A DNA stretch of 12,580 nt from the UHGV virus genome UHGV-1654074. One strand, written 5' to 3'. The DNA comes from a virus. Positions 12,533-12,580 of this stretch are shown here, one piece after another. The position numbers and the translations under genes are program-made. The notes under the pieces are model-generated. The model saw only the letters and a list, made by a program, of their open reading frames with translations, did not search any database and was not told the origin of the DNA. Every line of letters begins with the position of its first letter. Position 1 is the first letter of the stretch.

Positions 12533-12580
12533 CTGTCTCTTATACACATCTCCGAGCCCACGAGACATGCGCAGATCTCG
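12533..12580. other. Synthetic library adapter: reverse complement of the Nextera read-2 adapter (CTGTCTCTTATACACATCTCCGAGCCCACGAGAC, 12533-12566), then index-like ATGCGCAG (12567-12574) and ATCTCG, the start of the P7 primer region. Not biological.
   Basis: Exact reverse complement of bases 1-43, plus 5 further bases matching the P7-side constant sequence ...CGAGAT in reverse complement. Confidence 0.9.

Follow-up and report, generated by a model that had tools for sequence, protein, structure and literature searches.

The question raised by this locus is whether its two ends belong to the phage DNA that lies between them. The stretch analysed here, 12,580 nt of the UHGV virus genome UHGV-1654074 read 5' to 3' on one strand (hereafter the window), has ends that mirror one another, and from within the right-hand end a 449-codon open reading frame departs on the minus strand. 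An original prediction, made from the letters alone, read both ends as one and the same sequencing adapter and the reading frame as its by-product. Whether this holds depends on what the ends are composed of, where the phage DNA stops, how the adapter may have entered the assembly, and what it has done to the genes that run into it.

Composition of the two ends

Read directly from the sequence, the last 48 bases (12533-12580) run CTGTCTCTTATACACATCT CCGAGCCCACGAGAC ATGCGCAG ATCTCG and the first 43 (1-43) run T CTGCGCAT GTCTCGTGGGCTCGG AGATGTGTATAAGAGACAG. As a reference, the i7-side strand of a Nextera library was written out as the P7 sequence CAAGCAGAAGACGGCATACGAGAT, the index CTGCGCAT and GTCTCGTGGGCTCGGAGATGTGTATAAGAGACAG. 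Positions 1-43 of the window are an exact 3' suffix of CAAGCAGAAGACGGCATACGAGAT+CTGCGCAT+GTCTCGTGGGCTCGGAGATGTGTATAAGAGACAG, and positions 12533-12580 are an exact prefix of the reverse complement of the same strand. Mosaic end, read-2 15-mer, a listed index and the start of P7 follow one another in that order, as on the i7 side of a Nextera library. The individual parts are listed in Table 1. The 34-mer that includes GTCTCGTGGGCTCGG is given as an Illumina overhang adapter in thousands of papers retrieved by literature search. The index, named as Nextera i7 N722 in the original prediction, agrees with a published primer table that prints N722 as ATGCGCAG, in primer orientation CTGCGCAT, together with P7 CAAGCAGAAGACGGCATACGAGAT (Appendix B, PMC7589761).

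That the exact reverse complement of 10-43 occupies 12533-12566, followed by ATGCGCAG and ATCTCG, had been proposed beforehand and is correct at every position. The mirrored segment was correctly given as far as its 34 nt went, but this understates it. A repeat finder run over the whole window pairs 1-43 with 12533-12575 as an inverted repeat of 43 nt and 100% complementarity, which also takes in the index and one base beyond it; the left-end copy of the index plus one P7 base, inverted, reads TCTGCGCAT (1-9). The next-best inverted repeat in the window has 26 nt at 77%, and the computed chance probability of a perfect 43-nt terminal inverted repeat is about 1e-26. With a perfect repeat that matches the synthetic strand exactly, the description of the whole window as capped by identical adapter on both ends stands. 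No i5-side read-1 sequence (GACGCTGCCGACGA), P5 or TruSeq sequence was found anywhere in the window, and the mosaic end CTGTCTCTTATACACATCT has no further copy inside it beyond those at 12533-12551 (plus strand) and 25-43 (minus strand).

Nothing in the data examined contradicts a Nextera origin of the ends. Both are almost certainly untrimmed i7-side adapter of the Illumina Nextera (Tn5 tagmentation) type, left on a contig assembled from a short-read metagenome.

Table 1. Positions of the adapter parts, the phage DNA and the affected reading frames in the window, and of the adapter 34-mer inside phage genome records.
Record	Position	Strand	Feature	Basis
Window	1..1	+	P7 flow-cell sequence (...CGAGAT), final base T	Suffix match to i7 index primer
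Window	2..9	+	i7 index N722, primer orientation (CTGCGCAT)	Primer table; mirrors 12567-12574
Window	10..24	+	Read-2 / transposon-B specific part (GTCTCGTGGGCTCGG)	Strand comparison; literature
Window	25..43	-	Tn5 mosaic end, 19 nt (AGATGTGTATAAGAGACAG on +), tip against insert	Phage homology begins exactly at 44
Window	44..12532	+	Genuine DNA, lambdoid (mEp460/cdtI-like) head-tail module	97.5% identity, collinear with mEp460 and relatives; annotation, Pfam
Window	73..1470	+	Truncated capsid gene call, 465 aa from internal ATG	mEp460 gp05 comparison, gene calls, Pfam
Window	10127..12580	+	Partial J (tail tip/host specificity) gene	Residues 1-802 genuine, 803-818 adapter-coded; no stop codon
Window	11219..12568	-	Spurious 449-codon ORF	Codons 1-12 (12568-12533) adapter/index; codons 13-449 codon-aligned antisense of J
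Window	12533..12551	+	Tn5 mosaic end, 19 nt (CTGTCTCTTATACACATCT), tip against insert	Identity to mEp460 J collapses at 12532/12533
Window	12552..12566	+	Read-2 primer site, reverse complement, 15 nt (CCGAGCCCACGAGAC)	Strand comparison; copies in other records
Window	12567..12574	+	i7 index N722 as the sequencer reads it (ATGCGCAG)	Published primer table
Window	12575..12580	+	P7 reverse complement, first 6 nt (ATCTCG of ATCTCGTATGCCGTCTTCTGCTTG)	Strand comparison
NC_054922/MK373781	146326-146360		Internal 34-mer	
NC_054919/MK327946	76726-76759		Internal 34-mer	
MK327945	123962-123995		Internal 34-mer	
MH973725	6673-6706		Internal 34-mer	
LR535910	240196-240230		Internal 34-mer	
MT584805	107552-107585		Internal 34-mer	
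NC_070684/MH000603	33833-33866		Internal 34-mer	

The phage junctions and the source of the contig

The DNA enclosed by the adapters is a head-tail module that spans from inside a protease-scaffold-capsid gene to codon 802 of a J-like tail tip gene. When the whole window was compared by megablast with 50,697 phage records, mEp460, Ayreon, cdtI and relatives matched it collinearly over 44-12532, at approximately 97.5% identity; a match that ends at 12536/7 in some records is a chance extension. Separate searches of the window ends against phage records gave the same limits, and pairwise alignment with mEp460 shows near-identity up to both junctions and none past them. Projected onto mEp460, the left junction lies 532 nt into gp05 (protease-scaffold-capsid, 652 codons) and the right junction after codon 802 of the J-like gp18 (approximately 1137 codons). 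The Pfam family Ig_J_second is likewise cut at profile position 88 of 105, at J residue 802. Both junctions lie inside conserved genes, and in relatives real sequence extends past each of them. Five other sequencing runs yielded contigs that code for the identical 465-aa capsid fragment; where the window has adapter, 5' of position 44, these contigs and mEp460 alike read ...GGCATGTATTC. The true continuation past 12532 is expected to be mEp460-like, GCCGTCGGTCGGGCGAGC..., and the sequence 5' of 44 to be ...GGCATGTATTC.

The Logan contigs of these five runs (L292-L296) are near-identical copies of the phage module of about 7.6-8.2 kb each. In four of them the 3' end falls in the L gene, at approximately window position 8170; co-resident lambdoid prophages may have a mosaic or repeat boundary at this shared end. 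All five begin 17-67 nt upstream of the ATG of the capsid call at 73; a recurrent breakpoint near this ATG was considered and rejected, the pattern being a selection effect of looking up a product that starts there.

Looking up the 465-aa product of 73-1470 leads to the contig ena:ERZ652860:NODE_387_length_12580_cov_4.613573, the first 11,470 bases of which are identical to the window. Because of this identity and of the form of the contig name, the window is a complete SPAdes-style short-read contig with approximately 4.6x k-mer coverage rather than a single library insert. The original prediction had spoken of one insert or contig, of which the second term is correct and the first is not.

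The insert deserves consideration in its more specific form, namely that the window is one physical 12.5-kb tagmentation fragment with the B adapter and N722 on both ends, sequenced with long reads. While the same adapter and index at both ends and the geometry of a tagmentation product would follow naturally, we consider it very unlikely given that a SPAdes-style name with k-mer coverage denotes a short-read contig. Moreover, a full amplicon would have complete primers at both ends, whereas the two adapter remnants differ in length and stop short of the 66 nt, at 43 and 48. Their lengths lie within the usual range of adapter tails at the ends of SPAdes/MEGAHIT-type contigs from unrelated assemblies; in two independent collections, IMG/VR (L002-L051) and GTDB (L052-L171), the tails peak sharply at 46-48 nt. 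In addition, contigs with mixed i7/i5 ends are found in the same collections. One such IMG/VR contig (L026) has the i7-N722 adapter at one end and the i5 adapter at the other, from which it follows that two i7 ends are just one of the possible combinations.

For a short-read contig, a plausible route begins with Tn5 carrying the B oligo, which would cut phage DNA adjoining window positions 44 and 12532, and continues with PCR using the N722 primer, which would append index and P7. The tips of both mosaic ends face the enclosed DNA, a geometry that fits a tagmentation product and is the reverse of that of a transposon. Where inserts were shorter than the read length, read 1 would probably continue through into the adapter, once per strand, and pass in order through mosaic end, read-2 site, index and P7; two i7 ends would require two such read-throughs of read 1 on opposite strands, but the arrangement is a common one. 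Adapter trimming of the reads was presumably omitted. At low coverage the read-through reads may have been outermost, in which case the assembler would extend the contig into the adapter and halt at k-mers common to all other read-through reads. With a final k of 55, a contig that has entered the adapter would be predicted to stop once its junction k-mers are shared with other read-through reads, and k-mer merging with some 7-9 genuine bases remaining would give tails of 46-48 nt.

Reading frames across the junctions

The minus-strand open reading frame exists as first described, with 449 aa, an ATG and the 12 N-terminal residues reported, and translation of both strands places it antisense to J codon for codon. 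Its dismissal as an artefact is right as regards the adapter-derived start; only codons 1-12 are synthetic, however, while the remaining 437 come from real phage DNA, translated from the wrong strand. Neither the start codon (12568-12566) nor the N-terminus (codons 1-12, within 12533-12568) comes from the phage's own DNA. The ATG is the complement of plus-strand 12566-12568, formed by the last C of the constant adapter and the AT of the index. As it spans the adapter/index junction, the methionine is index-dependent and only the next 11 residues are constant: M arises only with indices starting AT, and indices starting AC or AA give GTG or TTG starts, respectively. The adapter peptide had been called well known. 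The translation itself is mechanical, but no such renown is apparent in the searchable literature, where a search for adapter-encoded peptides (27 and 10 residues) found no paper.

The length of the frame is explained by the codon usage of J. Stops in the codon-aligned antisense frame derive only from sense TTA, CTA or TCA codons, which account for 45 of the 4,119 codons of the window's genes (1.1%) and for 6 of the 802 of J, none of them after 11219. The 449-codon frame persists because J has none of the three over that stretch. In J these codons amount to 0.5-0.75%, and in mEp460 J the codon-aligned antisense frame is open for 638 codons (J codons 366-1003), compared with 437 codons for the genuine part here (window 11222-12532, minus strand). 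Given J's own codon use, open runs of such length are unremarkable and are to be expected now and then.

These two open runs are what would speak for a real overlapping gene in the codon-aligned antisense frame of lambdoid J, to which the adapter supplies only a false start in this contig. We regard such a gene as extremely unlikely, as the sense codons that would place stops in its frame are rare in J and long runs should occur occasionally in any case. No Pfam family was found in 11219-12568 at E<=0.01, whereas the sense frame gave strong matches to four J domains (Phage-tail_3, FNIII-A_GpJ, Ig_J and Ig_J_second, E = 1e-34 to 1e-43). Gene calls on the source contig are on the plus strand only, with none at this frame, and an exact look-up of the 449-aa product among called genes found it not on record. 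The 449-codon frame is a phantom and not a gene.

The adapter has also altered the two real genes that it interrupts. The J frame stays open through the adapter, with ...SAFVE followed by 16 adapter-coded residues, and the J call on the source contig accordingly has 818 residues, 802 genuine and 16 adapter-coded. It is through this real J gene, and not through the phantom frame, that adapter-derived false sequence has entered a public protein collection. The false J residues, which the original prediction did not mention, are the more consequential artefact. At the other end the real capsid gene begins 532 nt upstream of the junction, as judged from the 652-codon gp05 of mEp460, and an in-frame adapter TAA at 31-33 closes its reading frame, so that the gene caller began the capsid at the internal ATG at 73 and produced a seemingly complete product.

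The ends thus arose in the laboratory and in assembly, as an artefact of a familiar type, and hold no biological novelty. Their importance is one of data hygiene only: a 43-nt 'terminal inverted repeat' could pass for the ends of a transposon or replicon, and the adapter has produced a false start codon, a 449-aa phantom frame, 16 false J residues and a 5'-truncated capsid call. The window should be cut to 44-12532 ahead of further analysis.

The same adapter elsewhere and likeness to known systems

Finished phage and E. coli genomes had been named as the place where the terminal 48 bases might be met as genuine sequence. A search of 5,426 complete E. coli genomes (28 Gb) gave no match for the 48-mer. 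Phage records share only its constant 34 nt, and those that do belong to unrelated phages. Both results favour the original prediction. The GenBank/RefSeq phage collection holds 43 records that match the 34-mer, from phages of Streptococcus, Bacillus, Listeria, Staphylococcus, Pseudomonas, Acinetobacter, Paenibacillus, Salmonella and E. coli; the majority of the matches sit at the ends of the records, and 40 of the 43 cover constant adapter only, to query position 30-35, at or near the index boundary. In LT985573 the adapter is followed by the index AGGCAGAA, the full P7 ATCTCGTATGCCGTCTTCTGCTTG and then poly-A, which presents the full adapter architecture with a different index. Full P7 after the same adapter and index is also found in IMG/VR contigs.

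Outside phage records the 34-mer is also widespread. With one genome per species, GTDB has it in at least 120 stretches from many bacterial and archaeal phyla. Among the matches listed, 123 of 128 copies lie no more than 100 nt from the end of the locus, the mosaic-end tip faces the insert in every copy and never the opposite way, and the i7-side adapter is present on both ends of seven genome contigs. The 8-mers 3' of the 34-mer vary among these listed matches and include CGAGGCTG, AGGCAGAA, GTAGAGGA and ATGCGCAG. Most of the 8-mers found at this position in other contigs we take to be Nextera i7 indices. Nine of them are present in the primer table of PMC7589761.

In IMG/VR, the N722 adapter itself is found at 51 contig ends, and nine contigs have it on both ends, as the window does. 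All 49 of 49 IMG/VR stretches with the N722 adapter (L002-L051) come from one dataset, 3300045988, in which contigs 079708, 149120, 111188 and 107564 are examples of the both-end arrangement. The i5-side adapter is equally common in IMG/VR, with at least 120 contigs. The window's own junction-specific pattern gave no match in IMG/VR or in JGI metagenome contigs. Repeat finders, 'completeness' checks based on terminal repeats and protein clustering will keep meeting the same adapter.

Copies away from contig ends were also observed. The Nextera 34-mer lies deep inside several 'complete' GenBank/RefSeq phage genomes (Table 1), some copies within annotated genes, one of which is annotated 'baseplate hub subunit and tail lysozyme'. 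Their position suggests adapter-mediated misjoins or insertions in the assemblies. In a Crenarchaeota MAG (JAOAJQ010000047.1, L121), adapter at 3943-3976 with the index CAGAGAGG occurs mid-scaffold with a run of N immediately after it; scaffolding here joined a contig at an end still capped by adapter.

Set against known systems, the ends invite comparison with natural Tn5/IS50 repeats, with which they share a terminal inverted repeat and Tn5-derived end sequence. The 19-nt mosaic end was engineered from Tn5 end sequences, and transposons do have perfect terminal inverted repeats. That the 43-nt repeats are natural, as Tn5/IS50-like transposon ends or the terminal repeats of a linear replicon, is nevertheless vanishingly improbable and is refuted by their inside-out orientation, with the CTG tip adjoining the enclosed DNA such that the phage DNA is target and not cargo, by the phage head and tail genes that alone occupy the space between the arms in place of a transposase, by arms that run into a primer site, a commercial index and P7 bases, by the absence of the 48-mer from the complete E. 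coli genomes, and by junctions that break conserved genes continuing in relatives. The contig ends with the two arms and has no flanking DNA in which the 9-bp target duplications of a transposon would lie. The 449-codon frame resembles the shadow (antisense) frames of codon-biased genes in being codon-aligned antisense, here to J, and differs from them in beginning within synthetic DNA, which supplies its start codon and the whole of codons 1-12.

The closest likeness of the Nextera-capped contig is to other adapter-contaminated contigs in GenBank phage records, GTDB and IMG/VR, which have the same 34-mer at their ends, often at both, with tails of 42-50 nt. Those public contigs mostly carry other indices, and the contig represented by the window is held in ENA (ERZ652860). 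With Illumina Nextera / Nextera XT i7 read-through itself (CTGTCTCTTATACACATCT+CCGAGCCCACGAGAC+i7 index+ATCTCGTATGCCGTCTTCTGCTTG) the window agrees at every base of its last 48 and first 43 nt and shows no difference, the contig simply stopping after 6 nt of P7 on the right and 1 nt on the left.
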